Sequence record: OP617743.1
Direction: 5' to 3' (one strand)
Length of the DNA: 64,000 nucleotides
Source of the DNA: Klebsiella phage KP13-26
Below, one piece after another: positions 1,407 through 61,377 of this stretch. The notes under the pieces are model-generated. The model had not been told where the DNA came from and did no database searches. It saw only the letters and a program-made list of their open reading frames with translations. How positions within the stretch are numbered: the first letter of the stretch is position 1; each line of letters begins with the position of its first letter. Position numbers and translations under genes: made by a program.

Positions 1407-1627
1407 AATTAACTAAGGAGCAGATGTTTGATTTTATCCTGAACAACGTAGTTACCATTAGGCCAGATAGTGGTTGGTGGACAAGACATGATGAAGAAGG
1501 AAATATTATTGAACGGTATCAGAATAAATATGCTGTGAGCATCAACGAAACGGGTATGATTGGAATGGATCTTGAAGAAGCCATTCAATACTATCATGAC
1601 AATTGCGGGGATAAGGATGAAATTTGA
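1400..1627 (+). CDS. hypothetical small protein
   Basis: ORF overlapping the previous stop. Likely start is GTG 1403 (after GGAGG) or ATG 1424 (after AAGGAG). Confidence 0.45.
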   Translation: MVKLTKEQMFDFILNNVVTIRPDSGWWTRHDEEGNIIERYQNKYAVSINETGMIGMDLEEAIQYYHDNCGDKDEI

Positions 1628-2234
1628 TAACCTAATCGTAGTGGGTATGCGGGACAAAGTGCCGGAAGGTTTTACAGTGGTTAACACTACGAGTCGTGAT
1701 AAAGAAGGATACGGACAGCAACTTAGTCCGTTCTACCTGCGTGATATACCGATGTATGATGGCATCGTAGCCAAGAACATGGAGAATGCGTGGCAGTTTA
1801 GTAAAGTGTACGAAGAGCACGTAGACGAGGATGGTGATCCGACGGAAGCGTATTACACGTGGGCGCGAGCTGGTTGGGCTAACTGGAGAGCGGAACGCTA
1901 CCCTATGGGTAAGGGTAGAAAGCCTTTGTACAGCCTCTGGGACGGCAAGAAACTGGACTACATCTCCGCTCGTCGTAATCTCTACTTCCCAATGTACGCT
2001 CGTGCAGTGGTGCAAACAGAAACGTTCAAAGATCTGTGGAAACGGGTTAACGATGGTGAAAAGATTGCACTATTGGACTTTGACGGCTATCATTACCAAG
2101 AGTTAGGTATGGATTATTATGATGTAATTCATGCTGAGGACAAAAAGTGTGGTCATGGTTTCGTTATCTACGGGTTAATTCAAAGAGAACTAATTCTAAG
2201 TGGCGACCGACTTTTCCTACCAATGCTAGCCTAA
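1617..2234 (+). CDS. NADAR (DUF1768/YbiA-like) domain protein, possible ADP-ribose-processing enzyme
   Basis: Internal ATG 1617 with AAGGA RBS; the N-extension in the ORF track is rejected. Motifs LSPFY...MENAWQFSKVY resemble the NADAR signature (SNF...E-H-Y-Q-K). Confidence 0.4.
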   Translation: MKFDNLIVVGMRDKVPEGFTVVNTTSRDKEGYGQQLSPFYLRDIPMYDGIVAKNMENAWQFSKVYEEHVDEDGDPTEAYYTWARAGWANWRAERYPMGKGRKPLYSLWDGKKLDYISARRNLYFPMYARAVVQTETFKDLWKRVNDGEKIALLDFDGYHYQELGMDYYDVIHAEDKKCGHGFVIYGLIQRELILSGDRLFLPMLA

Positions 2235-29204: not shown

Positions 29205-29238
29205 AATAAAAGAAAAGGGGCTTTCGCCCCTTTGATTA
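29205..29238 (-). terminator. Bidirectional hairpin terminator at the strand switch
   Basis: GGGGC-TTTC-GCCCC stem flanked by T-runs on both strands. Confidence 0.6.
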
Positions 29239-30051
29239 TCCATTTAGATGATCTTCGACCATCTTAATGAAATGTGCATTGCTGAAGGTCTCAGCAGCTC
29301 CTGCATAGTAAACAACGACTCCCCTTTCTTCATAGAGGTTTTGTTCAAGATAATTCAAGCCGGGGTTAACAACGATCATCTTGGTTCCCATGTTTAGCGC
29401 AGGAAACAGTTCCCAGTTAAAGTTGATTACTTGGTTAGAGCAGCCAACTACAATTACCATATCTTGCCCTGTTAGGGTATCGAACAACGCATACATGTCG
29501 TTGTAGAGAGGTGCAGCCTCACCGAAGAACACAACATTAGGTTTAACCCAGTGGAATGCGTCGATATCCACATGAGCGTAGCCAACGTCCACCAGTGTTT
29601 CTTGAGAACTAGGCTCTAAACGATAACGGATCTCAGGTAAATAGCCGTGAACATGGAGTACAGATTCACGAGCCACACCAGCACGTTCCAACAGATCATC
29701 AACGTTAGTCGTGATGTTGTAGACACGCTCAGGAGCCATTGCAAACCATTTAGCAATTTGCAGGTGAGCTGCGTTAGGCTCTACAGTTGCTAGTTCTACA
29801 CGACGCTTGTTGTAGAAATTGTTTGTCTTCTCGTACAAATCCATCCCGTCATCATCAATACCACCTACAACAGGAACATCAGGGGATGTACGGCGGCGAT
29901 AGCCAGCTTGGAATGCACCAATATCACACACTTCAGCAAGATCATACTCGTCCCATAGTGCTTTCCCACTATCGGTATCGGTACGAAATGTACGCACACC
30001 GCTATCGGCGCTAAGTCCAGCACCGGAAACCACAATTAACCTTCTTGGCAT
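29236..30051 (-). CDS. SIR2 (sirtuin)-family NAD-dependent enzyme, no Zn ribbon
   Basis: Motifs GAGLSADSGVRTFR, TTNVDDLLERAG, VHG and KPNVVFFGE. Internal ATG 30051 preceded by GGAGGG. Confidence 0.7.
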   Translation of the reverse strand: MPRRLIVVSGAGLSADSGVRTFRTDTDSGKALWDEYDLAEVCDIGAFQAGYRRRTSPDVPVVGGIDDDGMDLYEKTNNFYNKRRVELATVEPNAAHLQIAKWFAMAPERVYNITTNVDDLLERAGVARESVLHVHGYLPEIRYRLEPSSQETLVDVGYAHVDIDAFHWVKPNVVFFGEAAPLYNDMYALFDTLTGQDMVIVVGCSNQVINFNWELFPALNMGTKMIVVNPGLNYLEQNLYEERGVVVYYAGAAETFSNAHFIKMVEDHLNG

Positions 30052-30167
30052 TTTTATCCCTCCACTATTTAATACACATTGTGTTTGATAATTTATCATA
30101 TCTTGATAATTCATATTTCACCTATACAAATAAAGCCCCAGGAAGGGGCTTTTATTAATTTTGAACA

Positions 30168-30827
30168 CTATACCACAGTTTTCATGTAGTTGTCAAATGT
30201 TTCTTTGTCTCCATTGGCAACCCAACAGGAGAAGTCTTCCTTCGGGTCTGGGGTTACACCTTCTTTCCAATCCCAACGAACATGACCACCATACTTCGCA
30301 CCAGGGAAAGTGTACTCCGCAGTATGAGTGATACGTCCAGGGCCACCCTCAAACTTGGTAAAGGTGAGCTGTGGATAGCAACGCATGACTGTTTCAATCC
30401 ACCAATCAAGACGATCTTTCGCCTCGTTGATGTAATAGGCATGGCGTTCCATCTCATCCCAATCGAACCATACACCCTGTTCATTCTGGAAAAACACGAG
30501 TTTCAGAGGATCATAGATATACGTGTAGTAATCATCGTTTTCCTCTTCGCCATTATATCCTTCCCAAGCTTCGCGCAGTTCTTTGTTATCATGTGCAGAG
30601 TACATCCACCAACCATGCTCCAAAAGAGCTTTATAAGGAACATAACCCTTTTCTGCATATTGGTCAAATTCTTTCACACGATGGACTTTACAGTATTCGT
30701 CGTCACCACCAATATCGAGCATACAAGCTCCACGACGACGAGCTGCCAAGCCGTGAGAGTCAAATACAACTACACTACCTTCGTAATCATTGCGATCAAC
30801 TTGATACGCCACCAGTTTCTTTGTCAT
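30168..30827 (-). CDS. hypothetical protein (219 aa), SIR2 operon
   Basis: ATG 30827 after GGAG; TAATG overlap with the Zn-ribbon gene. Confidence 0.55.
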   Translation of the reverse strand: MTKKLVAYQVDRNDYEGSVVVFDSHGLAARRRGACMLDIGGDDEYCKVHRVKEFDQYAEKGYVPYKALLEHGWWMYSAHDNKELREAWEGYNGEEENDDYYTYIYDPLKLVFFQNEQGVWFDWDEMERHAYYINEAKDRLDWWIETVMRCYPQLTFTKFEGGPGRITHTAEYTFPGAKYGGHVRWDWKEGVTPDPKEDFSCWVANGDKETFDNYMKTVV

Positions 30828-31006
30828 TATTTGCTCTCCAAACTTTTGTAACCAGTTTTGCAACTGTTACACTCATATATGTTTAATTTAGTATTGTCTG
30901 GTTTATGGAAGCAATTACAGCCGCACTTACAACTAAATTCTTTTCCGCCTACTGTTAAAATGAATGTTTCAATCTTTCCATCTTCTAGTGTCACTGGTTC
31001 TGCCAT
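30827..31006 (-). CDS. Cys-rich zinc-ribbon protein (59 aa)
   Basis: Sub-cutoff ORF with seven Cys (CKCGCNC...CNSC); GGAGG RBS. Confidence 0.5.
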   Translation of the reverse strand: MAEPVTLEDGKIETFILTVGGKEFSCKCGCNCFHKPDNTKLNIYECNSCKTGYKSLESK

Positions 31007-31027
31007 ACTACCTCCGTAGAAATTATC

Positions 31028-31171
31028 TTAGTAATATAAACTTAATATTGCTGCTAGGCATAGCAAAGATACCAGCAACCATGTAGTGTATTTTACCACT
31101 TTGTATCTAAAGATAGTAGGATCGGTAGCCAACTTTGATAACATCTCTAACACTGCCACTACCGCCTCCAT
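31028..31171 (-). CDS. small membrane protein (47 aa)
   Basis: Sub-cutoff hydrophobic ORF; TAATG overlap with the upstream gene; coordinates approximate. Confidence 0.35.
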   Translation of the reverse strand: MEAVVAVLEMLSKLATDPTIFRYKVVKYTTWLLVSLLCLAAILSLYY

Positions 31172-31854
31172 TACACACCTCTATTAGCCTTAAATACAGC
31201 ACGAGCAAACCCACGAGGCGTGAGAGATCGCAACTGTTTAGTTTTCTGGCTCTTCCCGCCTAGACTTTTCCATCCCCAAAACCAGTTTTGGTATTCTTTA
31301 ACCGGATTCTTAGGAGGCATGACAAATCCGTTACCACACCAGATACATGTTTTCTTTGTGTAAGCATCACAGAAAGGCATCTTAGGATGAAAACTCCCCT
31401 CTTCGGGGCGAAGATGCGCCCCATACTCCCACGGATGAAAATAATAATTAGGAAGCTTCCATTTAGTAGAAAGTTTACCTACTGGGTTTTCAATCATGTA
31501 GGGTACATTATATTTGTTACCTAATGTCTCTACTATACGAACATTTTTCAAAGCTTCATCAAGTTCTTCTTCAGTTCTCTCATGTTGCTCTCCACTGTTT
31601 GCTAGGAAAGTACACGAAGGGAACCCAAAGATAATGCTAGGGGCATCCCCACCATTATTACCCATCCCAGTAGGATCGAAAGTTTCATCAATCCAAGTAT
31701 CCACATATGTGATTAATGGGTGTTCCATTTTAATCACATATTGTCCATGATCCGCAGCACTGGAATTAAAGCAATACACTTGATATCCAGCCTCAGCCCA
31801 GGGAAGCCCCATGATTCCTGAGCCATCATAAAGGCACCATACCACTTTACTCAT
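31171..31854 (-). CDS. C5-cytosine methyltransferase-like catalytic-domain protein (truncated, no target-recognition domain)
   Basis: Motif I LYDGSGIMGLPWAEAG, motif IV-like GFPSC and motif VI IENPVG. The 227-aa length is too short for a complete C5-methyltransferase. Confidence 0.45.
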   Translation of the reverse strand: MSKVVWCLYDGSGIMGLPWAEAGYQVYCFNSSAADHGQYVIKMEHPLITYVDTWIDETFDPTGMGNNGGDAPSIIFGFPSCTFLANSGEQHERTEEELDEALKNVRIVETLGNKYNVPYMIENPVGKLSTKWKLPNYYFHPWEYGAHLRPEEGSFHPKMPFCDAYTKKTCIWCGNGFVMPPKNPVKEYQNWFWGWKSLGGKSQKTKQLRSLTPRGFARAVFKANRGV

Positions 31855-32784
31855 TCAATCTCCTTGAAATGGTTTAACGATGTGACTGTTAGCTTTGAAT
31901 CGCTCGATGTAATCAGTTTCACCCATGCTCTCATAGAATTTCATAACTACTCCGAAATTCTCCCAAGCGTACTCACGGAAGTAGCCTGACGTTATAGAGG
32001 TGCAAACCTTGCTCAAAGCCATAACAAAACTCTGACGAGCAGGAACTTCAAAATTAAAAGGGATCTGCGAACGTTCCAGTGCTAAGACACAGCTTTCTTC
32101 GTACACACCGAGAAGACGGATATGATTTTCTTGCTCAAAGAACTTTTCTTTGGAGGTCATCACTTCACTATCATCTTTCATATACGATTTGTATGCAGGA
32201 ACACCGAGAACTGCCACCGCTTCGTGAATGGTGTCATGATCGTACACATATGGCACTTCGTCGCCTTTGAAGAAGTCTTTGCTCTTCACATCCAAGTTTG
32301 GGTGAGAATAGTTATAGGTTTCTTTCTCACGCAGTTTGAATACTTCTTCTAACTCCGGCGGAATTTTAGCCCCAAGAGAGCGCATGAAATGAATGTCGTT
32401 CATGGTCTTGAAAAAGTGTGGACTGTTCTTCTTATAACGATGACTCATTTTCAGAAGATACAGAACATCTACCGGAGCCACGAAATCACCGTTGTTAAGG
32501 AACATACTCTGTGGGCTTGCCTTGCAATATTGGATCAGAATATCTGTGCTATCGCCCGGTTGAGCAATATCAAACTCGATATGTGTCCCATCTGTCAGTT
32601 TGACATGACCTTTGTTGCCAGTACGTTCCACAAGCTCAACGCCTTCTTCGTGGGTGTAACGCATGAATGCTATACTCCACTCCTTCTCTGTGCAAAGAAA
32701 GTCAAGATCAAGACAAGGGCGATAAAATTTCTTAGCCTCCCGTTCTAATTGAATCTCTAAACCACGGCTACCAACCATAATCAT
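31855..32784 (-). CDS. hypothetical protein (309 aa), first gene of the SIR2 operon
   Basis: GAGGAG RBS; stop adjacent to the 31854 start. Confidence 0.6.
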   Translation of the reverse strand: MIMVGSRGLEIQLEREAKKFYRPCLDLDFLCTEKEWSIAFMRYTHEEGVELVERTGNKGHVKLTDGTHIEFDIAQPGDSTDILIQYCKASPQSMFLNNGDFVAPVDVLYLLKMSHRYKKNSPHFFKTMNDIHFMRSLGAKIPPELEEVFKLREKETYNYSHPNLDVKSKDFFKGDEVPYVYDHDTIHEAVAVLGVPAYKSYMKDDSEVMTSKEKFFEQENHIRLLGVYEESCVLALERSQIPFNFEVPARQSFVMALSKVCTSITSGYFREYAWENFGVVMKFYESMGETDYIERFKANSHIVKPFQGD

Positions 32785-32854
32785 AATGTTTCTCCTCTCT
32801 TAAATGATAGATAGAGTTTACTTAGTATTATACCCAATGTCAATACTTAGACAA

Positions 32855-32877
32855 TAAAAAACCCGCCGAAGCGGGTT
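32855..32877 (-). terminator. Rho-independent terminator (minus strand)
   Basis: ACCCGC-TTCG-GCGGGT stem followed by TTTTTT. Confidence 0.6.
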
Positions 32878-32885
32878 CTTGTCAT

Positions 32886-33251
32886 TTAACACATTTCTGA
32901 AGAAGACACCCAGATACCTTGAGTTAGTTTACCTTCCTCATCGGCATATTCACTTGCTCGCCAGCCCAGGTAGTATTCTTCAATATCTGTACCTTTAGGA
33001 TAATATGTTTGTCCATTTTCCCCATATTCACCCCAGTAGGCTTGTACACCACCCTCGTCAGCCAAAGCGGCTATCTGATCTTTCACCGTCTCCACATATT
33101 CTTCTGCGGCTTTGGTCAGCTCTTGAATTTCTTTATCGTAATCACGTTTTTCCATTTTCTTCTCCTCTGCTTCTGCGATTAAGTTTAGCTCTGGCATCAG
33201 GAATGACCAGAGCAATTCATTAGCAACTGGACGTGACCCAAACTGATCCAT
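32886..33251 (-). CDS. WxSSSxxC-tail paralog F (121 aa)
   Basis: Ends GIWVSSSEMC. Start taken at ATG 33251; the listed 33290 start is TTG. Confidence 0.5.
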   Translation of the reverse strand: MDQFGSRPVANELLWSFLMPELNLIAEAEEKKMEKRDYDKEIQELTKAAEEYVETVKDQIAALADEGGVQAYWGEYGENGQTYYPKGTDIEEYYLGWRASEYADEEGKLTQGIWVSSSEMC

Positions 33252-33444
33252 CTGCGTACACTCCAAACGTTTCGGAATTTCCTTCGCCAAAACAGTCAGA
33301 AGACTGCCAATCTTCGAAGGTCATTTCTCCATCACAACTGATATCTAATCCGAAATCATTAGCTTCAGCCAGTGCGTGTAGTTCTTTAATGATTTTTTGT
33401 GCTTCAAGTGCCTTCTCTTGAATCTGATCAATGTTACGTGACAT
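33220..33444 (-). CDS. WxSSSxxC-tail paralog E (74 aa)
   Basis: Ends SVWVTSSC; ATG 33444 after AGAGGGT. Confidence 0.5.
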   Translation of the reverse strand: MSRNIDQIQEKALEAQKIIKELHALAEANDFGLDISCDGEMTFEDWQSSDCFGEGNSETFGVYADGSVWVTSSC

Positions 33445-33470
33445 TTTTGTACCCTCTATTGTTAAACTGC

Positions 33471-33499
33471 TTTCATTATAGGGCAAAACTTCATGCCCT
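33471..33499 (-). promoter_or_regulatory. Minus-strand sigma70 promoter TTGCAG-N17-TATAAT with GGGCA/TGCCC spacer palindrome
   Basis: Seen on the reverse complement. Confidence 0.45.
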
Positions 33500-33529
33500 G
33501 CAATAAAAATTCTTACATCATAACCCATA

Positions 33530-33724
33530 CTAGCAACCCAGAGAAGACGGGAACCAGTTATCACCAGTATACTCGTTTTCTTCTTCTGGATCAAAGTAAC
33601 CGCCCATGCCGTAAGCCGGATGGAAACCAAAACCTTCACCTGTTTCCAAGGATAGACGCTGTGCTTCTTCAAGAGCGGCTCTTGCCGCAGCTACTGCTTC
33701 GCTTACTGTTTTAAATTCACCCAT
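33530..33724 (-). CDS. WxSSSxxC-tail paralog D (64 aa)
   Basis: Ends DNWFPSSLGC; AGGAG RBS. Confidence 0.5.
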   Translation of the reverse strand: MGEFKTVSEAVAAARAALEEAQRLSLETGEGFGFHPAYGMGGYFDPEEENEYTGDNWFPSSLGC

Positions 33725-33739
33725 TTTTATCTCCTATTA

Positions 33740-34177
33740 TTACCAGCAAATACTGCTTGAAATCCAACCATGCTCATATCCAGCGTTAATGTGCGCTGAA
33801 AGAACTTGCTCTTTACCTACACTAAACTTTCCGTCTTCGTAGACGAAAGGTTCTTGGATACCAGATTCTTCCCAGAGATTCATCAGCACCTGTTTAGCAG
33901 TGTTGATTTCATCCAGGCGTTCTTTACTAACCATAACATTGTTGTAGCAATAATCATAGATTGCATCTTCCTGAATAGGTTCCATAGTCTCTTTGTTATA
34001 AGCCCATGTGGTCAGCATGTAATCATCTGTCCAATAAGGTTTAACTTCGAGAGGAATACCTTCCACATGAAGACGCTCATCTTCATCACCCAAGAACAAA
34101 ACGGTAAATTTATATTCGCCGCTACTTAGATCGTAGTAATCTTCACCTACACGAAGGTTGTCAATGTTATTATACAT
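33740..34177 (-). CDS. WxSSSxxC-tail paralog C (145 aa)
   Basis: Ends HGWISSSICW; AAGGGG RBS. Confidence 0.55.
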   Translation of the reverse strand: MYNNIDNLRVGEDYYDLSSGEYKFTVLFLGDEDERLHVEGIPLEVKPYWTDDYMLTTWAYNKETMEPIQEDAIYDYCYNNVMVSKERLDEINTAKQVLMNLWEESGIQEPFVYEDGKFSVGKEQVLSAHINAGYEHGWISSSICW

Positions 34178-34186
34178 TTTAGCCCC

Positions 34187-34606
34187 TTAACAAGTCATGC
34201 TACTAGAGCACCAAGCATGAGTACCTTGGATATAGGCAGAGCATTCGTCGTTACCAATATACACACGGTCATCTGATACAATAAGATCTCTTGTATTTAC
34301 ACCCAGAGACTTCAGCGTATCCACGATGTGTTGGCGTTCTTTATCTTTTCTTTTACGTTCTACAGGATCGATTAGACCGTGTTCATTAATAAATTCTTCA
34401 ATATAATTATCCCCTTCAATAAATTCGTCATTATAATAATCTTCGTAAAGAATTGCATCGTTATGTTCAGGGAGTTCATTCATTTCTTCTAGATATGCCT
34501 GTTTGTCTTCATCACTAGACCAAACACCATCAGCAAACACAATGCGAGCTACTTCATCACCCCAATTATCTTCGAATACTTGCCCAGCCACATATTTATT
34601 CTTCAC
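34187..34606 (-). CDS. WxSSSxxC-tail paralog B (139 aa)
   Basis: Ends THAWCSSSMTC; GTG start after GAGGAG. Confidence 0.55.
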   Translation of the reverse strand: MKNKYVAGQVFEDNWGDEVARIVFADGVWSSDEDKQAYLEEMNELPEHNDAILYEDYYNDEFIEGDNYIEEFINEHGLIDPVERKRKDKERQHIVDTLKSLGVNTRDLIVSDDRVYIGNDECSAYIQGTHAWCSSSMTC

Positions 34607-35521: not shown

Positions 35522-36039
35522 TACCAGGTATCTCCCTTTGGCTTGATAACCTCAACGAAGAAAGAAGTTTCCATTTGCAGAGTATTGTTTAAAATAAACC
35601 CGTATAAAGGATACGCTGTAGTTCCTGCATATTGAATAGTATCAGCAGGAGCAAAATGCACAGCTACTTTTTGTGCTCCGTTATCTAACTCATGAACAAT
35701 TGCACGTAAGATCTCATTCACCATCACGGTAGTGAATGTTTGCAGTACAGTGTTTTCAAATGGAACATACCCTAAGAAATGAAGATTAATATCTTCAATC
35801 TCTTGTTGAGTCAAATCTTTATCCAGTGGATAAAATGGAATAGTATATGCAACGTTATCTTTTGTCAAGAAGACATCACAATTATGATAAAGGAAGTCTA
35901 CTTTGTCCATAACAAAACGAATACCTTGCCAAAGTGTATCTTGTACACGTTCTTGGATAGCCTCAGTTAAATCTACGAGATCGTGATGCATATGACTTAC
36001 ATTAGTACGTTCTCCTCCTCTAAGACATGCTTTAAGCAT
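35521..36039 (-). CDS. hypothetical protein (172 aa)
   Basis: GAGGAGG RBS. Confidence 0.6.
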   Translation of the reverse strand: MLKACLRGGERTNVSHMHHDLVDLTEAIQERVQDTLWQGIRFVMDKVDFLYHNCDVFLTKDNVAYTIPFYPLDKDLTQQEIEDINLHFLGYVPFENTVLQTFTTVMVNEILRAIVHELDNGAQKVAVHFAPADTIQYAGTTAYPLYGFILNNTLQMETSFFVEVIKPKGDTW

Positions 36040-36604
36040 TAATTGCCTCCTCTAAAATAGGTTTAATGAAATCAAATATTTCCCGTTTACTTTTACCTCG
36101 TATGTTAAAGCAAGGAATATTAAACTGTTTTGCTAACATCCATGCAGTTCTAGTCCCTCCTTTTGCATCCCCATTTTTATCTACATCTGAACAGGCCAAT
36201 AAAAATAAAGAGGGAACAGGATTTTCCAAATCTCTTCCTAGCACCTGATGAACATTGCGTTGATGCAATTTCTTACCCCCTTGTGATAACCTATCCCAAG
36301 CAGGATGTATTTCTTTTGCATATTTAACGCTTATAGCGTAGTTCATTGTATCAGGGCTGTCAAGACAAATTTTCTCCCCTGCTATTTCATTACCTTCAAA
36401 TTTAGGCCACGGAATGTAAATTTCTTTGTTATCAGGAAGATTAGACAAGGATACACCATACTCGAATGCAGAATCGGAGCCTCCTGCCTTACCGGATCTT
36501 AACTTAAGCCATTGGGCTAACCATTTAGCGACGGCAACCATTATATCCCATTCTTCATCTGTGATATCACGACTTCCTACACCAGTGTAAAATAATCCCT
36601 CCAT
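36032..36604 (-). CDS. DprA/SLOG-like Rossmann-fold protein
   Basis: GVGSR...SGKAGGSD...GGTRTA pattern resembling the DprA/Smf fold; GAGGTGA RBS. Confidence 0.35.
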   Translation of the reverse strand: MEGLFYTGVGSRDITDEEWDIMVAVAKWLAQWLKLRSGKAGGSDSAFEYGVSLSNLPDNKEIYIPWPKFEGNEIAGEKICLDSPDTMNYAISVKYAKEIHPAWDRLSQGGKKLHQRNVHQVLGRDLENPVPSLFLLACSDVDKNGDAKGGTRTAWMLAKQFNIPCFNIRGKSKREIFDFIKPILEEAINA

Positions 36605-36613
36605 CCTATCACC

Positions 36614-36868
36614 TCAGCAGGTTACAGTAAATGGATTACCTGGGGTATAAGGTATTTGTGGATTCTTCCAGATATCCTCGATTTGCTGTTTCCAAATTTC
36701 CCTTAGCTTTGTCACATCTGGATCAATGCTTTCATTAGGAACATCTGTTTCCACCTTAATAATTTCTTCTGACACCAAAATCTCTTTGGCTAGCTCAAGG
36801 TTGTCTGTCTCGATAGTGGTTTCTTTAGTCACTTCACCGACAGTTTCTTTGATTGTTATTTTGTACAT
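36614..36868 (-). CDS. hypothetical protein (84 aa)
   Basis: AGAGGAAG RBS; TAATG overlap with the upstream gene. Confidence 0.55.
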   Translation of the reverse strand: MYKITIKETVGEVTKETTIETDNLELAKEILVSEEIIKVETDVPNESIDPDVTKLREIWKQQIEDIWKNPQIPYTPGNPFTVTC

Positions 36869-37605
36869 TAGTCTTCCTCTAAAGTTGAATAAAACTTAAC
36901 CGTTCCTTGCTCATCAAACCAACTAAATGTCAGATTATTGTTGAAACAAGACCCGGTATCCATATATATACGATTAGCATTCATTAATGGCTTTGGTACA
37001 TAAGAGTGTCCATGAAATACATAGTCTACGCCTAATACTTTAGGCAAAGAAATCCCCTCCTGAGCACAGGAAATCATATCTCTATCCCACATTAAAGACT
37101 CTGCAAAAATATCTTCCTTTTCCTTGGATAATCCCAAATTAGGTATCTCTGTTACTGGTAAATATTCATAAGCAGAAGGATAACCTCCATGTATAAATGC
37201 TAACTTTTTACCTCTATGTTCTACTACTAGAACAACGGGGAGATTTTCTACCATTGTTGCCAATAAACTAACACCATCTTCCCCAAGCTCACTCCAAACA
37301 GTATGACCACCATTCTGATACCAACATTCATAATAATCTCTACTGCCTTCTAACATGCCTCTAATTAGCATATCTTCATGATTACCACGGATAGCAAAAC
37401 GGTTAGACTTACGTGTGAATTCAATTACACATCGCAGATTTTGTTTACCCCTGTCAGTAAGATCTCCGAGAGAAATAACATAATCTGTATCTCTAATTCC
37501 TAGAACTCTTTCTCCTTTTTTATAGAGATCGTAACATCCATGTAAATCCCCTATGATAAATAAATCTTTATCATCCTCCAATTTAATAAATTCATAAAGT
37601 TTCAC
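36868..37605 (-). CDS. Ser/Thr protein phosphatase (PPP/lambda-phosphatase type)
   Basis: GDLHG, GDLTDRG and RGNHE motifs; GTG start after GAGGAG. Confidence 0.8.
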   Translation of the reverse strand: MKLYEFIKLEDDKDLFIIGDLHGCYDLYKKGERVLGIRDTDYVISLGDLTDRGKQNLRCVIEFTRKSNRFAIRGNHEDMLIRGMLEGSRDYYECWYQNGGHTVWSELGEDGVSLLATMVENLPVVLVVEHRGKKLAFIHGGYPSAYEYLPVTEIPNLGLSKEKEDIFAESLMWDRDMISCAQEGISLPKVLGVDYVFHGHSYVPKPLMNANRIYMDTGSCFNNNLTFSWFDEQGTVKFYSTLEED

Positions 37606-39561: not shown

Positions 39562-40071
39562 TCATACAAAATAGAAAGGTTGCGTAAGCCCTAGACGATT
39601 CTTAGGGTCATAAACATACCACGCATATGCTGTTTTATCTGTCCCGCCACCAACAAAAGAGGGTCTTTCTGACAAAACGATCAAATGATTAGGGGGATTA
39701 TTTTTATGAAACTCCCTACGTTTCTTGGATTCTAAGAATCCTAAACGAAGGAGGTATATACACACATCACATTCTTGTAGACTCTTCTCTAAGAATTGTA
39801 ATGCCAGTTTAAATGGAGGATTTGTGATAATAGCATCTGGCTTTCTCTTCCAACTACTATTAAAATAATCTATCCCCTCGTCTAACTCACAATATTCAGA
39901 TCCTTCTGGAAAATGCTGATAGATAGCATTTGCTAAACCTCTACAAGGTTCAGCAAAAGTCCATCCCTCTTCCACAAGATTTTTAAAATCTATAATACCG
40001 AATAAACTATCTATACACTTTTGGGGAGTAGGATAAAAGTCATTATCCGGTCTTTCATAGTTGTTTGCCAA
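39562..40071 (-). CDS. Phage Dam-type N6-adenine DNA methyltransferase (small, PF05869-like)
   Basis: NPPF motif IV; about 170 aa, typical of phage Dam. Probable TTG start. Confidence 0.55.
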   Translation of the reverse strand: MANNYERPDNDFYPTPQKCIDSLFGIIDFKNLVEEGWTFAEPCRGLANAIYQHFPEGSEYCELDEGIDYFNSSWKRKPDAIITNPPFKLALQFLEKSLQECDVCIYLLRLGFLESKKRREFHKNNPPNHLIVLSERPSFVGGGTDKTAYAWYVYDPKNRLGLTQPFYFV

Positions 40072-56634: not shown

Positions 56635-57357
56635 TTAGCCTACAATACTTTTAATATCAGGTTTAGAAAAGGTAGAAGGTTTCATGATCTTACCTTTATC
56701 ATCAAAAAACACATAGACTTTTTGTTTCTCATTGTAGGTGGCATGTACACCAATGTACGCACCTTCTGAACGATCCTTATTACGCTCCTCGATTGCAGCA
56801 CATTCTTGTGCAATAGCAAACTCAATATCCTTAGTCTCCCACACTGCCAGAAGCTGTTTGCGAGTTGGGTATTTCGAGTCATTACTACGTAATACCTCTT
56901 TAAGAACTTTTTTGTAGTTGTACTTAGAACGGACTAGAGTGTCTCTTGCCATGCGTAGCATAGCTATAGTAAGAGGGATAATTTGTGCATCGGTTGACAT
57001 TTCTTTCTCATATAAAAGAAATTCATCATACACTGCTTCAGGGAAAACATCACCAACACCTGTGCTTAAAATCTTTTCGAGATTTTCTTCACTAGTAAAC
57101 ATAAAAGTTAGGTAACTAGCTACTACAAAAACATCTGCGGCAGCATCTAAAAGTTCAACATGATCGTTAATCTTCGCAGCATCTTGAAATTCTTTCAACT
57201 CTTCTCTGACATATCCTAACTGTGCAATAAACATTTCATTGGTAAACTCAGGAGTTTCTCCTCCTCGTGCTTTAGCATTCCATGCAATAACATGTTTAGC
57301 AGCGTCAATGAAAAATTGATTATCGGCTTTAATAGGTTTATAAAAATCTGTAATCAC
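56635..57357 (-). CDS. MazG-like all-alpha NTP pyrophosphohydrolase
   Basis: REELKEFQDA...ELLDAAADVFVVASYL EExxE/D pattern. Confidence 0.35.
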   Translation of the reverse strand: MITDFYKPIKADNQFFIDAAKHVIAWNAKARGGETPEFTNEMFIAQLGYVREELKEFQDAAKINDHVELLDAAADVFVVASYLTFMFTSEENLEKILSTGVGDVFPEAVYDEFLLYEKEMSTDAQIIPLTIAMLRMARDTLVRSKYNYKKVLKEVLRSNDSKYPTRKQLLAVWETKDIEFAIAQECAAIEERNKDRSEGAYIGVHATYNEKQKVYVFFDDKGKIMKPSTFSKPDIKSIVG

Positions 57358-57371
57358 TCGTTCTCCTTAAA

Positions 57372-57546
57372 TTAAATCAGAAATATAGCGTGCTAGGTAA
57401 TATGTAACTAAACCAAAACCAATCCCAGACATAGCCGAATCTATAACGCCAGCAACTTGTACAGGAATAGTTTTTCTTTCTTGTTCAGCAAGGGTCATAA
57501 TACCGATTGCGATAATAAACAACACTAATAAAATAATGTAAAACAT
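57372..57546 (-). CDS. small two-TM membrane protein (58 aa)
   Basis: Sub-cutoff ORF with AAGGAGG RBS. Confidence 0.4.
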
Positions 57547-57555
57547 TTTACCTCC

Positions 57556-58674
57556 TTATTCGGCAGGTTCCCATGTCCCGTCGATCATCTCTCTTAGACG
57601 AACACCAACTGGTTTCGTAGGAATCCCGGCGTCAGATAATTCTTCATATTCAATTTCTACAAATTGATCGATAAGTTGGGAAGCGTTATCGGCTTTGCGG
57701 TAGTTAATGGTCGGATGTGAATCTTTCCTCATCAGGAATTCCACAATCTTATCATCTTTTGTAACCCCTGTCAACACCCCATCACCATTTTTATCAACAG
57801 TCATACCCGTTACTTTTACTTCCATGTTGCCACGAGGTTTACGTTTGATAACGTCATAGGAACGTTTACCGAACTCATACATACCGTCTTCGTTGCGATA
57901 CACGATACCTTCGGCTTTATCTTCCAAAGCTTTTTCATAAAAAGCGTCTAACTGCTCTTGGTTTTCAATGTACTCAGAATGCACAACATGAATAAGGTCT
58001 TCTAAGCCAGCTTGTACAACCATCTCTGCTAAGTCTTTCAAGAACTCTACACGCTTCTTGAATGGTAGATCTGGTACAGGAATATCATATACGTAGTAGC
58101 CTAACTGCTCAGTGATACCAGCCTTATACTTCTTCCATGCTCCATTGATGACTTGCAGACTCAGAACACCCAAGCCAGCAAACACTTCACCATCTAAAGG
58201 ATACCCAAAATCTTCCTGAATGAACTCAGGAATTTTAGTCCAGTGTTCAGGAAGTGTATACACTTCACCAGCTTTTGATAGGCATTCACCATCATCGTTA
58301 AGCATAGAACGTAAACCATTCAACTTGTATTGCGCATACCCTGGGAAACGCACTTTATGAGAGAAGTCCTTATAATCCTGACACTTCATCGGTGTAAAGG
58401 GTTCGTGATCTTGTGCTTCCTCAATGGTGTGGTAATATCCTCGTTTAAGCTGCTTCGTCCATTTTGCCAAAGCTTCTAATTCCGCTTGCTCTTCTGGTGT
58501 AGTTTCATTAGATCGACCAACATTTTTAGCTTCGGCTTCATAGGACTTCGTAGTAATCTTTCCACCAAGACGACCATGACCAACTGTAACAGTTGCACCA
58601 TCCGTATAGACAGACCATTCTTTAATATTACCTTTGGTGTCTTTACCATACAATGTAGGATTTAATTGCAGCAT
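57556..58674 (-). CDS. ATP-dependent DNA ligase
   Basis: Motif I K-L-N-G-L-R; 372 aa, similar to T7-type ligases; AAGGAGAA RBS. Confidence 0.6.
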   Translation of the reverse strand: MLQLNPTLYGKDTKGNIKEWSVYTDGATVTVGHGRLGGKITTKSYEAEAKNVGRSNETTPEEQAELEALAKWTKQLKRGYYHTIEEAQDHEPFTPMKCQDYKDFSHKVRFPGYAQYKLNGLRSMLNDDGECLSKAGEVYTLPEHWTKIPEFIQEDFGYPLDGEVFAGLGVLSLQVINGAWKKYKAGITEQLGYYVYDIPVPDLPFKKRVEFLKDLAEMVVQAGLEDLIHVVHSEYIENQEQLDAFYEKALEDKAEGIVYRNEDGMYEFGKRSYDVIKRKPRGNMEVKVTGMTVDKNGDGVLTGVTKDDKIVEFLMRKDSHPTINYRKADNASQLIDQFVEIEYEELSDAGIPTKPVGVRLREMIDGTWEPAE

Positions 58675-58683
58675 TATTTCTCC

Positions 58684-58908
58684 TTACCAATCAAAAACTG
58701 TTTCTTGGACACTAAACATCATCTGTGTTAAATCAACCTCTAAATATTCTGATGAGGTAACGAGGAATGAGTTTACAATAGTGAATCCTTCATTATCCAA
58801 GACTTCGCAAATCTCTTGATACATATCTTCAATCTCTACACCTTCCCCAAAAGAGAAAAGGCATTGCTCATGCTCACTCACGCCTCTTACATAAATAGCT
58901 GTACTCAT
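58684..58908 (-). CDS. hypothetical protein (74 aa)
   Basis: GGGAGGA RBS. Confidence 0.5.
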   Translation of the reverse strand: MSTAIYVRGVSEHEQCLFSFGEGVEIEDMYQEICEVLDNEGFTIVNSFLVTSSEYLEVDLTQMMFSVQETVFDW

Positions 58909-59090
58909 TCATCCTCCCACGCTGCATACGCGCAGCAATCATCTGTTTCGATTTCACCTTCATTTCCGCAAACAAGGCATTTCACTTTGTCGCCATAATA
59001 GAGGTATAACTCATCACCTTTTTCGGTCTCTACTTCAATCTTACTGCTCCCACAAGGGCAATAGAGCCACGGTACAATAAGTTTTCTCAA
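58905..59090 (-). CDS. zinc-ribbon protein (61 aa)
   Basis: CPCG...CLVCG; TTG start after GGAGGTGA. Confidence 0.45.
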   Translation of the reverse strand: MRKLIVPWLYCPCGSSKIEVETEKGDELYLYYGDKVKCLVCGNEGEIETDDCCAYAAWEDE

Positions 59091-59329
59091 ATATCACCTC
59101 CACACATTCCACAGCGTTCACGCCCACTCATATCATAGTAGGTAGCACCATCATGGGGACAACCCTTATGAAGTTGCTCATAAGCGTGATTGAATGCACG
59201 TAATTCATGTTCCCAAAACCCACGGTTATCTTCATCAGGTTCACCAGTTACAGGCTCCAGTTCGATAAGACGTTCAAGAGCCTTTCTCCACGAGTTCTCA
59301 TGGGTATAAAAATCATCTGGAATATTCAT
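59087..59329 (-). CDS. zinc-binding protein (80 aa)
   Basis: CPHDG...CGMCGG. Confidence 0.45.
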   Translation of the reverse strand: MNIPDDFYTHENSWRKALERLIELEPVTGEPDEDNRGFWEHELRAFNHAYEQLHKGCPHDGATYYDMSGRERCGMCGGDI

Positions 59330-59331
59330 TT

Positions 59332-59490
59332 TCACCCCTTTGGTACGCAGATGCCACGGTCAAAGATTTTGTTGCGAACGCCCTCATTCAAGGCCATCAT
59401 ACATGCACCCTGAGAATTAAACTCCTGATTCCAACCACTGCTACCTTCCCCGTAAGTCCAGATAGCAAACAGTATATACATTGTTACCAT
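59332..59490 (-). CDS. hypothetical small protein (52 aa)
   Basis: Sub-cutoff ORF with AGGAGGAG RBS. Confidence 0.35.
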   Translation of the reverse strand: MVTMYILFAIWTYGEGSSGWNQEFNSQGACMMALNEGVRNKIFDRGICVPKG

Positions 59491-59501
59491 TATTACTCCT
59501 C

Positions 59502-59906
59502 CTACTGTAATTTTAAGGAATTACGCAAACGTTTTTCTTGAGTATCACGAATATTCTGTGGAACATCGTGGATAGAGTTATTCCCATGACGGTTTTCTAC
59601 AACTAAGCTTACCACCTGATATTCGTACTCTTCTGCTAAATCCAGATAAGGAGTAAGTTCTTTCTCCGTGGTGGATGTATTAGATACGATAATCTTGAGG
59701 AAACCCTGTTCCATCGCTTCCTTTACCTTATCTTGGCACCATTTATGTGCTGCATGAACATTCTCAGGTTTCCAATCGTAAACACCATCCTCAGTGTAAT
59801 GAAATTTGTCTGCTTCACAGACAGGCCACAAATCTTCTGCCAACATATCTGCCACTGTGGACTTACCAGCACCAGACACACCACGTAAAATAATAAGTCT
59901 TTTCAT
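59502..59906 (-). CDS. Polynucleotide 5'-kinase (T4 Pnk N-terminal-domain-like, stand-alone)
   Basis: P-loop GVSGAGKST; IIVSNTS corresponds to the T4 Pnk SDTN block. Confidence 0.6.
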   Translation of the reverse strand: MKRLIILRGVSGAGKSTVADMLAEDLWPVCEADKFHYTEDGVYDWKPENVHAAHKWCQDKVKEAMEQGFLKIIVSNTSTTEKELTPYLDLAEEYEYQVVSLVVENRHGNNSIHDVPQNIRDTQEKRLRNSLKLQ

Positions 59907-60826
59907 TATTTCTCCCTCTCAAAGTACGTTTCGATTTTCTCTCTCCGAACTTGGGAATCTAAAGCTTTCCATTCTTCTTTTTCAAAAGCGAAACGTAGCC
60001 ACTCTAGCAGTGAATAGTATTCTTCGTCAATACGTTTCCTTGCTTCTTGTGGATTATCCCAAATCATATCCCATTTATTATCCCCTCCGCGCATCAGGAA
60101 TTTTTTCGCCAAGTAATGTGGAGATTTGATTTTCATAAGAAGTTCGCTGTTTTCTTCATCTGTTCCGATATTACGGATGACATAACCCTCATGCTGGACA
60201 TGCTGGACATTATAGACCACATCACCAAAAGGAACAACACCCCATGTAGGGCGCTTTGCGCCAATAACCTCAGCAATACGATCAAGCTTATGTTCTTCCA
60301 CCATAACACCGTTCAAAGCAAGGTCACGGACACCAATAAGATATGCCCCTTCTTCCTCATCTATAATGTGCGGATCACTTCTATCACAGATTTCAAAGAT
60401 AAATGTGAAATCCTCTGGAAACGCCACACGGTCAAACTTAAGTTCGTCAAGATGTTTCCGTGCAAGAGTGGAGAACTCGGAATCCAAGGTTCCTGTTGTT
60501 GACACAAGAAGTTTTTCACCACGTACCGCAGCAGTTGCCATAAATCCATTGACTTTACGAACGCACACAACCTGCTGATCAAGTGGTAAGTCTGTTCCAT
60601 TTTCAAAACGATTGAAAATCTTCGTGAAAGGCCAGATAATAACATTATCTTCTGCATCAACAACCATCCCACGGCATTCCAGCAAACGTTGGTCTGTATG
60701 CCATAGGTTATCCCAGAACACATTGTTCTTATATTTAAGAACAGACAGTCCCGCGTATGGGCCATCAATATAAGTCTTTTTCGTGACTAATTTTTTAGCT
60801 ACCAAGTCATCGACATTAAATTTCAT
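59906..60826 (-). CDS. RNA ligase, T4 Rnl1 (RnlA)-like
   Basis: LLECRGMVV and motif I VRKVNGF align with T4 Rnl1 LECRGIMF and TKEDGSL. Confidence 0.55.
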   Translation of the reverse strand: MKFNVDDLVAKKLVTKKTYIDGPYAGLSVLKYKNNVFWDNLWHTDQRLLECRGMVVDAEDNVIIWPFTKIFNRFENGTDLPLDQQVVCVRKVNGFMATAAVRGEKLLVSTTGTLDSEFSTLARKHLDELKFDRVAFPEDFTFIFEICDRSDPHIIDEEEGAYLIGVRDLALNGVMVEEHKLDRIAEVIGAKRPTWGVVPFGDVVYNVQHVQHEGYVIRNIGTDEENSELLMKIKSPHYLAKKFLMRGGDNKWDMIWDNPQEARKRIDEEYYSLLEWLRFAFEKEEWKALDSQVRREKIETYFEREK

Positions 60827-60828
60827 AA

Positions 60829-61377
60829 CTATTCCTCAATCTTTTTATGGTGATCGATTACCTTCACGTCGCGCGTATCCATAATCTCAATAACTTCATC
60901 GAAATGAATTATTTTACCAACAGCATCCCAACCAACATCCATCATCTTTCCGAATAAATGGTCTGGAAAACTTCCATGTGAGTGCCCATGTAAATGAATT
61001 GAACCACGGCCTTGTTTATTCCATGACGCAATAGGATAGTGACAAAGAACAAAAAATTTCTTTTTATACTTCACCTCTTCATAATACTTCACTTCACCGT
61101 ACTTTTCAAGAACTTCACGGTGTTTTGAGTAATCATGATTCCCAACGATAAAGGTAATCTCACCGTTTAAACGGGAAGCAATGAAATCTGTTTCTTCTGG
61201 CGTACCAAAACAGAAATCTCCAAGATGATACATTTTTGTGCCAGGTGTTTTTGCTTTTTCGTTCCAAGCCGCAATAAGAGCCTCTGTCATCTCTTCCATA
61301 GTTTCCCACGGTCTAAAATTAGGAGCAAACTCCTTGATACGTTTATGCATGAAATGCAGGTCACTTGTCAAATACAT
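60829..61377 (-). CDS. Calcineurin-like metallophosphoesterase
   Basis: DLHFMH, GDFCFG, GNHD and HGHSH motifs. Confidence 0.7.
   Translation of the reverse strand: MYLTSDLHFMHKRIKEFAPNFRPWETMEEMTEALIAAWNEKAKTPGTKMYHLGDFCFGTPEETDFIASRLNGEITFIVGNHDYSKHREVLEKYGEVKYYEEVKYKKKFFVLCHYPIASWNKQGRGSIHLHGHSHGSFPDHLFGKMMDVGWDAVGKIIHFDEVIEIMDTRDVKVIDHHKKIEE

Follow-up and report, generated by a model that had tools for sequence, protein, structure and literature searches.

Known enzyme families, and not a new NAD-targeting operon, at the end of a leftward gene array in Klebsiella phage KP13-26

Here we analyse a 64,000-nucleotide stretch of DNA from Klebsiella phage KP13-26 (OP617743.1), which we call the window, and in it six minus-strand genes that an original prediction had read as one operon acting on nicotinamide adenine dinucleotide (NAD) or ADP-ribose. 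We call these genes, in the order in which they are read, A to E and SIR2 (Table 1). Our results show that the families of the two enzymes of interest, the SIR2 protein and protein B, have both been described already, and that no new NAD-targeting operon is present. Instead, the region would be the distal end of a leftward early or middle gene array, made of independently acquired accessory genes and including two enzymes of known families. Taken jointly, the three parts of this reading (a string of accessory genes, B as a Dcm-type methyltransferase and SIR2 as a CobB/SIRT5-type deacylase) seem moderately likely to us.

By itself this finding matters little. Both families have been annotated and surveyed, the methyltransferase family has been functionally characterised and the logic of the operon fails. 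One useful point is that a CobB-like sirtuin without zinc site is kept in about 1,000 phage genomes, including that of the model phage T5. The two in-silico proposals for its role disagree: one sees a deacetylase that activates Acs, the other a Tpt1-like RNA-repair enzyme.

A sirtuin without a zinc site

The SIR2 fold that had been proposed for the last of the six genes is upheld. The protein scores 77.1 bits against PF02146 (cutoff 24), matches phrog_2162 with an E value of 1.8e-100 and also matches the CobB-type models of NCBIfam (E 2e-29, below the equivalog cutoffs). Its best sequence match in the PDB is E. coli CobB (E 1.7e-17), and the archaeal Sir2Af1/Af2 and SIRT5 are also among its best solved relatives. 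The AlphaFold2 (AF2) model, with a predicted local distance difference test score (pLDDT) of 90.3, points in the same direction. All of its top 50 Foldseek matches in the PDB are canonical sirtuins, CobB first (1s5p, 6rx*; E 1e-16, template modelling (TM) score 0.82–0.86), and no ThsA, DSR2, SIR2-HerA or SIR2 associated with prokaryotic Argonaute (pAgo) is among them.

Among phages the protein is widespread. A tblastn search found it in 977 phage records, from T5-like phages (T5.102, "putative Sir2-like protein"), rV5, Mydo, 4MG and phi92-like phages to Vibrio and enterobacterial jumbo phages. Over 99–100% of its length it is 49.6% identical to the rV5_ev158 protein and 55.9% identical to that of Mydo, and it is 100% identical to the protein deposited for KP13-26. 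From the ATG at 30051, which has GGAGGG ahead of it, it is 271 amino acids (aa) long and not 272, as had been noted.

The motifs quoted for SIR2 in the original prediction are all present (GAGLSADSGVRTFR, TTNVDD and HVHG, the last with the catalytic His136), and so are FFGE and VVNP. We aligned 44 members of the clade, including those of the T5-like DT571/2, rV5 and Mydo. Invariant among them are G11, A12, G13, S15, S18, F23 and R24, then T116, N117, V118 and D119, and H136 and G137, as well as Y81 and R84, the PNVxFFxE motif, a G-x-S and an N-P. Y81 and R84 align with the Tyr and Arg of FYNARR in CobB. The role of this Tyr-x-x-Arg pair in CobB and SIRT5 is to hold succinyl- or malonyl-lysine by its carboxylate.

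That SIR2 lacks a Cys4 zinc module was correctly observed: there is no Cys between H136 of the HG motif and K171 of KPNVVFFGE, and none is conserved there in its clade relatives. The roughly 21 closest 50%-identity representatives (1.84 billion representatives searched) have no CxxC in the ribbon, whereas in more distant relatives the same IGY motif of the ribbon is flanked by CxxC...CxxC. Hence, the four zinc ligands have been lost while the beta-ribbon was retained, and in the AF2 model the ribbon strands at 137–156 are confidently predicted (pLDDT about 95). Taken together, alignment and model identify SIR2 as a predicted zinc-less, CobB/SIRT5-like sirtuin of the T5.102/rV5 phage clade.

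The absence of zinc had been taken as a sign of a defence-type NADase, which does not follow for this lineage. The protein groups with CobB and SIRT5, keeps the Tyr-x-x-Arg pair and has no defence protein among its top 50 structural matches. A PADLOC scan of all six proteins (E <= 0.1) gave no match except a weak one of gene E to BovA (E 0.031). Because PADLOC did not match SIR2, we dropped the idea of a defence effector.

If SIR2 is an active sirtuin, it would consume one NAD+ per turnover, via His136, and would release nicotinamide and O-acyl-ADP-ribose. Its substrates would most likely be lysines of host or phage proteins, from which it would remove acetyl or succinyl-type acyl groups.

Two in-silico treatments of these proteins surfaced in the searchable literature, and no biochemical study of the phage clade was found there. 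The absence of zinc was described in 2016 for the Sir2/CobB proteins of the Vibrio phages phiGrn1, phiSt2 and KVP40; the same authors named T5 and others as carriers and proposed that the host protein Acs is deacetylated (PMC5107563). The phiGrn1 protein is 38% identical to the SIR2 of the window. A distinct viral sirtuin clade, whose prototypes are those of Escherichia phage V5 and Proteus phage Mydo (neighbourhood type 2), was described in 2022 (PMC9503650, section 3.7.3), and a KptA-like role in RNA repair was predicted from adjacent genes for a T4-like RNA ligase, a cREC protein, a kinase, a MazG protein and a phosphoesterase.

The small cytosine methyltransferase

Protein B had been described as a truncated C5-methyltransferase-like protein without target-recognition domain. 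The usual domain is indeed missing, but the protein is not truncated. A search of a large protein database gave at least 2,952 homologues, of which the 120 best that were listed are 210–255 aa long; about 215–255 aa is the size of the whole family. B matches phrog_757 ("DNA methyltransferase") with an E value of 9.5e-79 and was found by tblastn in at least 1,493 phage records, mostly of Drexlerviridae, Webervirus, Dhillonvirus, Vequintavirinae and phi92-like phages.

The motifs quoted for B (DGSG, GFPSC and ENPVG) are all there. In an alignment of 49 sequences the invariant positions are D10-G-S-G13 of motif I, F78-P79-x-C81 of motif IV (FPSC in B), E122-N-P-V125 of motif VI (ENPVG), K167 and R209-S-L-T212 of motif IX (RSLTPRGFA); K168 is conserved in at least 90% of the sequences. 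Between the YTKKTCIW strand of the motif VIII region and RSLTPRG lie only about 35 residues (173–208), so that the large target-recognition domain which normally sits there, ahead of motif IX, is missing. For this active family its absence is the rule, as it is in DNMT3.

B itself has no Pfam match at E <= 1, PF00145 included, and 12 of the 49 homologues match PF00145 weakly (best E 3e-6). Sequence searches of the PDB gave matches at chance level (E >= 0.28), both with the single sequences of A, B and E and with profiles of A and B; in NCBIfam the five proteins other than SIR2 had no match. The fold of B was therefore taken from its AF2 model (pLDDT 85.8), whose top matches in the PDB are the prophage C5-methyltransferase 3g7u, DNMT3A/3B and DNMT1 (E 3e-5 to 3e-4, TM about 0.47–0.50). 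The C5-methyltransferase fold proposed for B thus stands, since the model matches C5 DNA methyltransferases. We read B as a complete, minimal Dcm-type DNA C5-cytosine methyltransferase, as judged from its conserved motifs and the modelled fold, and not as a fragment.

The family includes an active member. Over its full length B shares 49% identity (E 1e-69) with bas06_0055, a 236-aa "Dcm-like C5 cytosine methyltransferase" of phage KarlJaspers. The 711-bp dcm gene of K42, a KarlJaspers strain (95.4% identical), puts 5-methylcytosine on the multicopy single-stranded DNA (msDNA) of retron Ec86, as detected by liquid chromatography–mass spectrometry, and mutation of CCWGG in the msDNA abolishes Ec86 defence (bioRxiv 10.1101/2023.08.16.553469). 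Hence, methylation at the CCWGG of the msDNA triggers the retron. A C82A/E128A/K175A/K176A mutant of K42 Dcm served as the inactive control in the same study; in the alignment, the counterparts of the mutated positions in B are C81, E122, K167 and K168. Methylation by Dcm activates the effector of retron Eco1 for hydrolysis of NAD(P)+ (PMC12916289). Since a member of the family triggers Eco1, phages that carry such methylases may be sensed by a retron defence that hydrolyses NAD(P)+. It would be wrong to label the small Dcm-type methylases of this family as truncated.

This homology to KarlJaspers and K42 makes CCWGG the likeliest candidate site of B. The window contains 93 CCWGG sites where 73 ± 8 are expected, and they are thus not avoided. 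This is compatible with methylation, but uninformative by itself. B would bind S-adenosylmethionine via motif I (DGSG), and Cys81 would attack a flipped cytosine at C6 with the help of Glu122 and Lys167/168, so that a short site is methylated at C5. The likely role is to shield phage DNA from restriction, with possible recognition by retron Eco1 as a side effect.

A second methyltransferase-like open reading frame of 169 aa lies on the minus strand at 39562–40071. It matches only positions 204–374 of the 458-position profile of phrog_799 ("DNA methyltransferase"). Unlike B, it may be a partial or split methylase.

Gene order and the spread of the neighbours

The window phage falls into the Stephanstirmvirinae (phi92-like phages). 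Over a 4-kb region its DNA is 94.7% identical to that of Klebsiella phage FKP3 (Stephanstirmvirinae, Justusliebigvirus); phi1_175008 and KP2025 are about 88% identical over the same region. The protein sequences are 98–100% identical to deposited ones. A tRNA scan of the window found none.

All six minus-strand reading frames are where they had been predicted, and the GAGGAG ribosome-binding site ahead of gene A, which follows the promoter at 32854–32827, is confirmed. Gene A abuts B, and the starts of C and E share 1 nt with the stops of B and D, respectively. With such overlaps and abutting genes behind one promoter, A to E are almost certainly co-transcribed.

For SIR2 the situation is different. 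The original prediction held that terminators bound the unit, and hairpins at 32880–32857 and 29233–29214 do so; the latter sits where the leftward array meets converging plus-strand genes. What was missed is the internal hairpin at 30152–30132. Because this hairpin and a promoter-like site precede SIR2, a single operon of all six genes is not obvious. Terminator-like hairpins are enriched in the region (10 observed, 4.3 ± 1.8 in shuffles). In the annotation of phi1_175008 the six genes are the final members of an unbroken leftward array of replication and nucleotide-metabolism genes that exceeds 25 kb. Hence, they do not form an isolated operon either.

Table 1. Features of the window discussed in the text.
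Feature	Position	Strand	Description
Gene A	31855-32784	-	309 aa; DUF7277 residues 1-87, DUF7275 residues 107-294; phrog_2141
Gene B	31171-31854	-	227 aa; phrog_757; predicted small Dcm-type C5 cytosine DNA methyltransferase
Gene C	31028-31171	-	47 aa; hydrophobic C-terminal stretch WLLVSLLCLAAILSLYY
Gene D	30827-31006	-	59 aa; Cys-rich CxCxCxC-H...CxxC; phrog_5768
Gene E	30168-30827	-	219 aa from ATG; phrog_8514
SIR2 gene	29236-30051	-	271 aa; PF02146, phrog_2162
Terminator-like hairpin	32857-32880	-	AACCCGC-TTCG-GCGGGTT then T run; ends upstream gene 32886-33290
Sigma-70-like promoter	32827-32854	-	TTGTCT-16-TATAAT, 10/12 matches; just downstream of the 32857-32880 hairpin
Palindromic G+C-rich hairpin	30132-30152		AAAGCCCC-TTCCT-GGGGCTTT; within the 116-nt gap between E and SIR2
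Promoter-like site	30196-30167	-	TTGACA-18-TATAGT, 11/12 matches; just upstream of the 30152-30132 hairpin
Terminator-like hairpin	29214-29233	-	AAAGGGGC-GAAA-GCCCCTTT then T run; ends leftward array
Rnl1-type RNA ligase	59906-60826	-	PF09511, phrog_562; 45% identical to that of rV5
Calcineurin-like metallophosphoesterase	60829-61377	-	directly beside RNA ligase; 32% identical to that of rV5
MazG-like pyrophosphohydrolase	56635-57357	-	in the 56635-58674 stretch near RNA ligase
ATP-dependent DNA ligase	within 56635-58674	-	near the RNA ligase/phosphoesterase pair

The distribution of the genes argues against a single module. Next to the 977 records for SIR2 and at least 1,493 for B stand 733 phage records for A (mostly T4-like phages, Pseudomonas phages and actinophages), 224 for D (mostly FelixO1-like and Erwinia phages) and 140 for E (almost exclusively Stephanstirmvirinae), and these are largely different groups of phages. 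Related phages also carry insertions between the genes. FKP3 has an HNH endonuclease gene and a 192-aa reading frame between E and SIR2 (L002 4039–5234, against 30052–30167 in the window), where the window has the hairpin alone; judging from this comparison, homing-endonuclease cassettes appear to insert in this intergenic stretch. In phi1_175008, KP2025 and ESCO5 an extra gene of about 130 aa separates A and B, and in ESCO5 C and D are missing and another gene precedes Sir2. The unlike distributions of the five genes searched, together with the insertions, therefore indicate a mosaic accessory region and not a co-evolving system. No partner of the sirtuin is conserved across lineages, as the neighbours differ in T5-like phages, rV5, Mydo, ESCO5 and FKP3; protein E, for instance, is unrelated to the protein that follows Sir2 in rV5 (E 0.84). 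There is no evidence that the six genes function together as a module. They are ordinary, widely distributed accessory genes, which comes close to the outcome that the original prediction had named as its own refutation; for the sirtuin no experimentally established function was found.

Of the smaller genes, C has no family match in Pfam or PHROG profile searches. D, which had been described as a zinc ribbon with seven cysteines, has six cysteines and one histidine. Gene A has two domains. In the N-terminal DUF7277 the residues G5-S6, D26-x-D28 and E70 are invariant, and in the C-terminal DUF7275 H115, H123, H161, H183-D184 and H187; many T4-like phages match A by the C-terminal domain alone. 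The series G5-S6...D26-x-D28...E70 may resemble the signature of a Pol-beta-type nucleotidyltransferase. A Pfam scan of 33 homologues of A (E <= 10) returned DUF7275 and DUF7277 and nothing else, and the nucleotidyltransferase idea therefore rests on the motif.

Upstream of the unit, at 33220–34606 on the minus strand, consecutive genes encode small acidic proteins with a similar C-terminal motif; examples of their tails are ...WVTSSC, ...SSLGC, ...WISSSICW and ...WCSSSMTC. Their similarity points to a family of paralogues in which a tail with Cys is conserved.

The NAD/ADP-ribose theme had also been drawn from a supposedly NADAR-like gene at the beginning of the window. This gene (1560–2234, plus strand) matches DUF6939 alone in Pfam at E <= 0.01 (E 1.1e-9) and has no PHROG family, and the theme is therefore without profile support from it. 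Elsewhere in the window a phrog_768 "DprA-like" protein (YspA in KP2025) is encoded downstream of a calcineurin-like (NinI-type) phosphatase, with one small gene between them (36032–36604 and 36868–37605, both on the minus strand). The DprA-like protein has no Pfam match at E <= 0.01. We take proteins of the YspA type to be members of the SLOG family, a fold proposed to bind nucleotides derived from ADP-ribose.

Competing explanations and known systems

One could argue that the sirtuin repairs RNA and does not deacylate proteins. It would then use NAD+ like KptA/Tpt1 and move ADP-ribose onto the 2′-phosphate of a broken and resealed tRNA or mRNA and so remove that phosphate, joining an Rnl1-type ligase, a phosphoesterase and MazG-like enzymes against damage by host anticodon nucleases. 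We regard this as unlikely, but as an alternative to be taken seriously. It is the role that Iyer, Burroughs, Anantharaman and Aravind proposed in 2022 with V5 and Mydo as prototypes (PMC9503650, section 3.7.3), and we could confirm that in rV5 and Mydo, whose orthologues are about 50% and 56% identical to SIR2, the gene lies within one or two genes of an RNA ligase and a phosphoesterase. The window itself encodes orthologues of this RNA ligase and phosphoesterase as well as a MazG-like protein and a DNA ligase, and the invariant Tyr-x-x-Arg could, we infer, grip a phosphate as well as a carboxylate. In rV5 and Mydo the sirtuin is flanked by the gene set that the window has at 56635–61377, where no sirtuin adjoins it. 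The cluster is 27–31 kb from SIR2, and hence the contextual argument made for rV5 and Mydo fails here even though the partners exist. In T5-like phages, moreover, the sirtuin lies beside nrdD and a helicase with no RNA ligase in the 6 kb examined on either side, which makes the association of ligase and sirtuin lineage-specific. Repair of the T4 type by Pnkp and Rnl1, finally, leaves no 2′-phosphate behind on which such an enzyme could act. The acyl-lysine tunnel motifs FFGE and VVNP are conserved as they are in deacylases (PMC5107563). We prefer the deacylase reading because these motifs and the Tyr-Arg pair of CobB/SIRT5 are intact, and because the RNA ligase is adjacent in rV5 and Mydo and not in the T5-like and phi92-like loci examined. 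On the sequence evidence we would give it roughly twice the weight of a Tpt1-like reading with RNA 2′-phosphates as substrate. A broader version, in which SIR2 is an NAD-dependent enzyme that processes nucleic-acid ends (for example Tpt1-like), grips phosphate with Tyr-x-x-Arg and works in trans with the distant ligase and phosphoesterase, seems to us slightly less probable again. If it were true, about 1,000 sequenced phages including T5 would use the sirtuin fold for a new kind of catalysis, which would undo the anticodon-nuclease defence of the host.

The remaining two explanations we find much harder to accept. In the original prediction the six genes are one NAD/ADP-ribose module, in which a defence-like zinc-less SIR2 depletes or reshapes NAD+ or ADP-ribose during infection, for anti-defence or host takeover, and a methyltransferase fragment acts on a nucleotide substrate. 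SIR2 is indeed without a Cys4 site, a single promoter precedes the tightly packed genes A to E and the KVP40 homologue was first annotated as an NAD hydrolase (quoted in PMC5107563). Furthermore, phage Dcm triggers the NAD(P)+-hydrolysing retron Eco1 (PMC12916289), and thus an indirect connection between Dcm and NAD exists in hosts. All the same, the module is largely refuted, since the family assignments already contradict it, and we consider it very improbable. SIR2 belongs to PF02146, beside CobB and SIRT5 by sequence and by structure, and it is a single-domain protein without a sensor partner. The PADLOC scan returned nothing beyond the weak BovA match of E. B belongs to a family of complete methyltransferases with demonstrated activity on DNA, the supposed NADAR gene matches DUF6939 alone, and the genes are distributed independently and interrupted by insertions in related phages. 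Even less credible is a sirtuin that has decayed into a non-catalytic remnant, a binder of NAD+ or ADP-ribose or a decoy, with a small domain destabilised by the loss of zinc. The zinc ligands are missing across the clade, and the question of stability was raised by the authors of the 2016 study (PMC5107563). However, about 46 columns are invariant, including every catalytic and NAD-contacting residue, between phage families that are 50–60% identical. Such invariance argues for purifying selection on catalysis, and the ribbon is predicted at high confidence.

Several points weigh against our preferred reading, in which SIR2 is a protein deacylase, B a Dcm-type methyltransferase and the region a string of accessory genes. 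The searchable literature contains no assayed enzyme of the phage sirtuin clade, and the loss of the zinc site may alter the small domain of SIR2 that binds the peptide. The position of the rV5 and Mydo orthologues beside an RNA ligase and a phosphoesterase argues for RNA ends over protein lysines as substrate. B itself is below every Pfam threshold, and as it is 49% identical to the family of the tested enzyme, its site specificity may differ. The tight packing of A to E, finally, may leave room for some functional link among these genes.

How does the predicted sirtuin compare with known systems? Like other members of the T5.102/rV5/Mydo clade, it is a single-domain protein of about 250–280 aa without a Cys4 site and with identical invariant residues, and it shares 50–76% full-length identity with T5-like, rV5-like, Mydo-like and phi92-like members. 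It differs from them in its setting, as it closes a leftward array near E and the predicted Dcm, about 30 kb from the RNA ligase cluster, and in an insertion of about 26 residues (approximately residues 49–74) that some subclades lack. With CobB and SIRT5 it has in common the GAGxS, TNVD-type, HG, FGE and xNP motifs, the Tyr-x-x-Arg pair and the structural similarity given above (TM normalised to CobB). In contrast to them, it is encoded by a phage, carries the extra insertion in its small domain, has no CxxC...CxxC zinc site and has Thr in TTNVDD for the Gln of TQNID.

The SIR2 proteins of defence systems (ThsA, DSR1/DSR2, SIR2-HerA and pAgo-SIR2) share with it the Rossmann-type SIR2 fold, the use of NAD+ and the absence of a Cys4 module. 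Yet they belong to a separate Pfam family, SIR2_2, whereas the protein of the window matches the canonical PF02146. It is a single domain, with no sensor or partner fused to it or beside it (SLOG, HerA, pAgo, TIR or a large C-terminal domain), and it is encoded by a lytic phage, with E and a terminator as neighbours, and not in a host defence island.

For B, the closest known system is the Dcm of KarlJaspers and K42. The two proteins are of similar size (227 and 236 aa) and have the FPxC, ENPVG, KK and RSLTPRGFARAV motifs in common, and both the published K42 model and our model of B match DNMT3A best. They differ in motif IV, which is FPSC in B and FPPC in the relative, and in their phages, a 150-kb myovirus and a 51-kb siphovirus of the Drexlerviridae, respectively. 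Compared with classical C5 methyltransferases such as M.HhaI and E. coli Dcm (PF00145), B is about 100–250 aa shorter and has Lys-Lys where motif VIII has Arg-x-Arg. It nevertheless keeps the order of motifs I, IV, VI, VIII-like and IX, its Cys and Glu imply the same catalytic chemistry, and its modelled fold matches 3g7u, DNMT1 and DNMT3.

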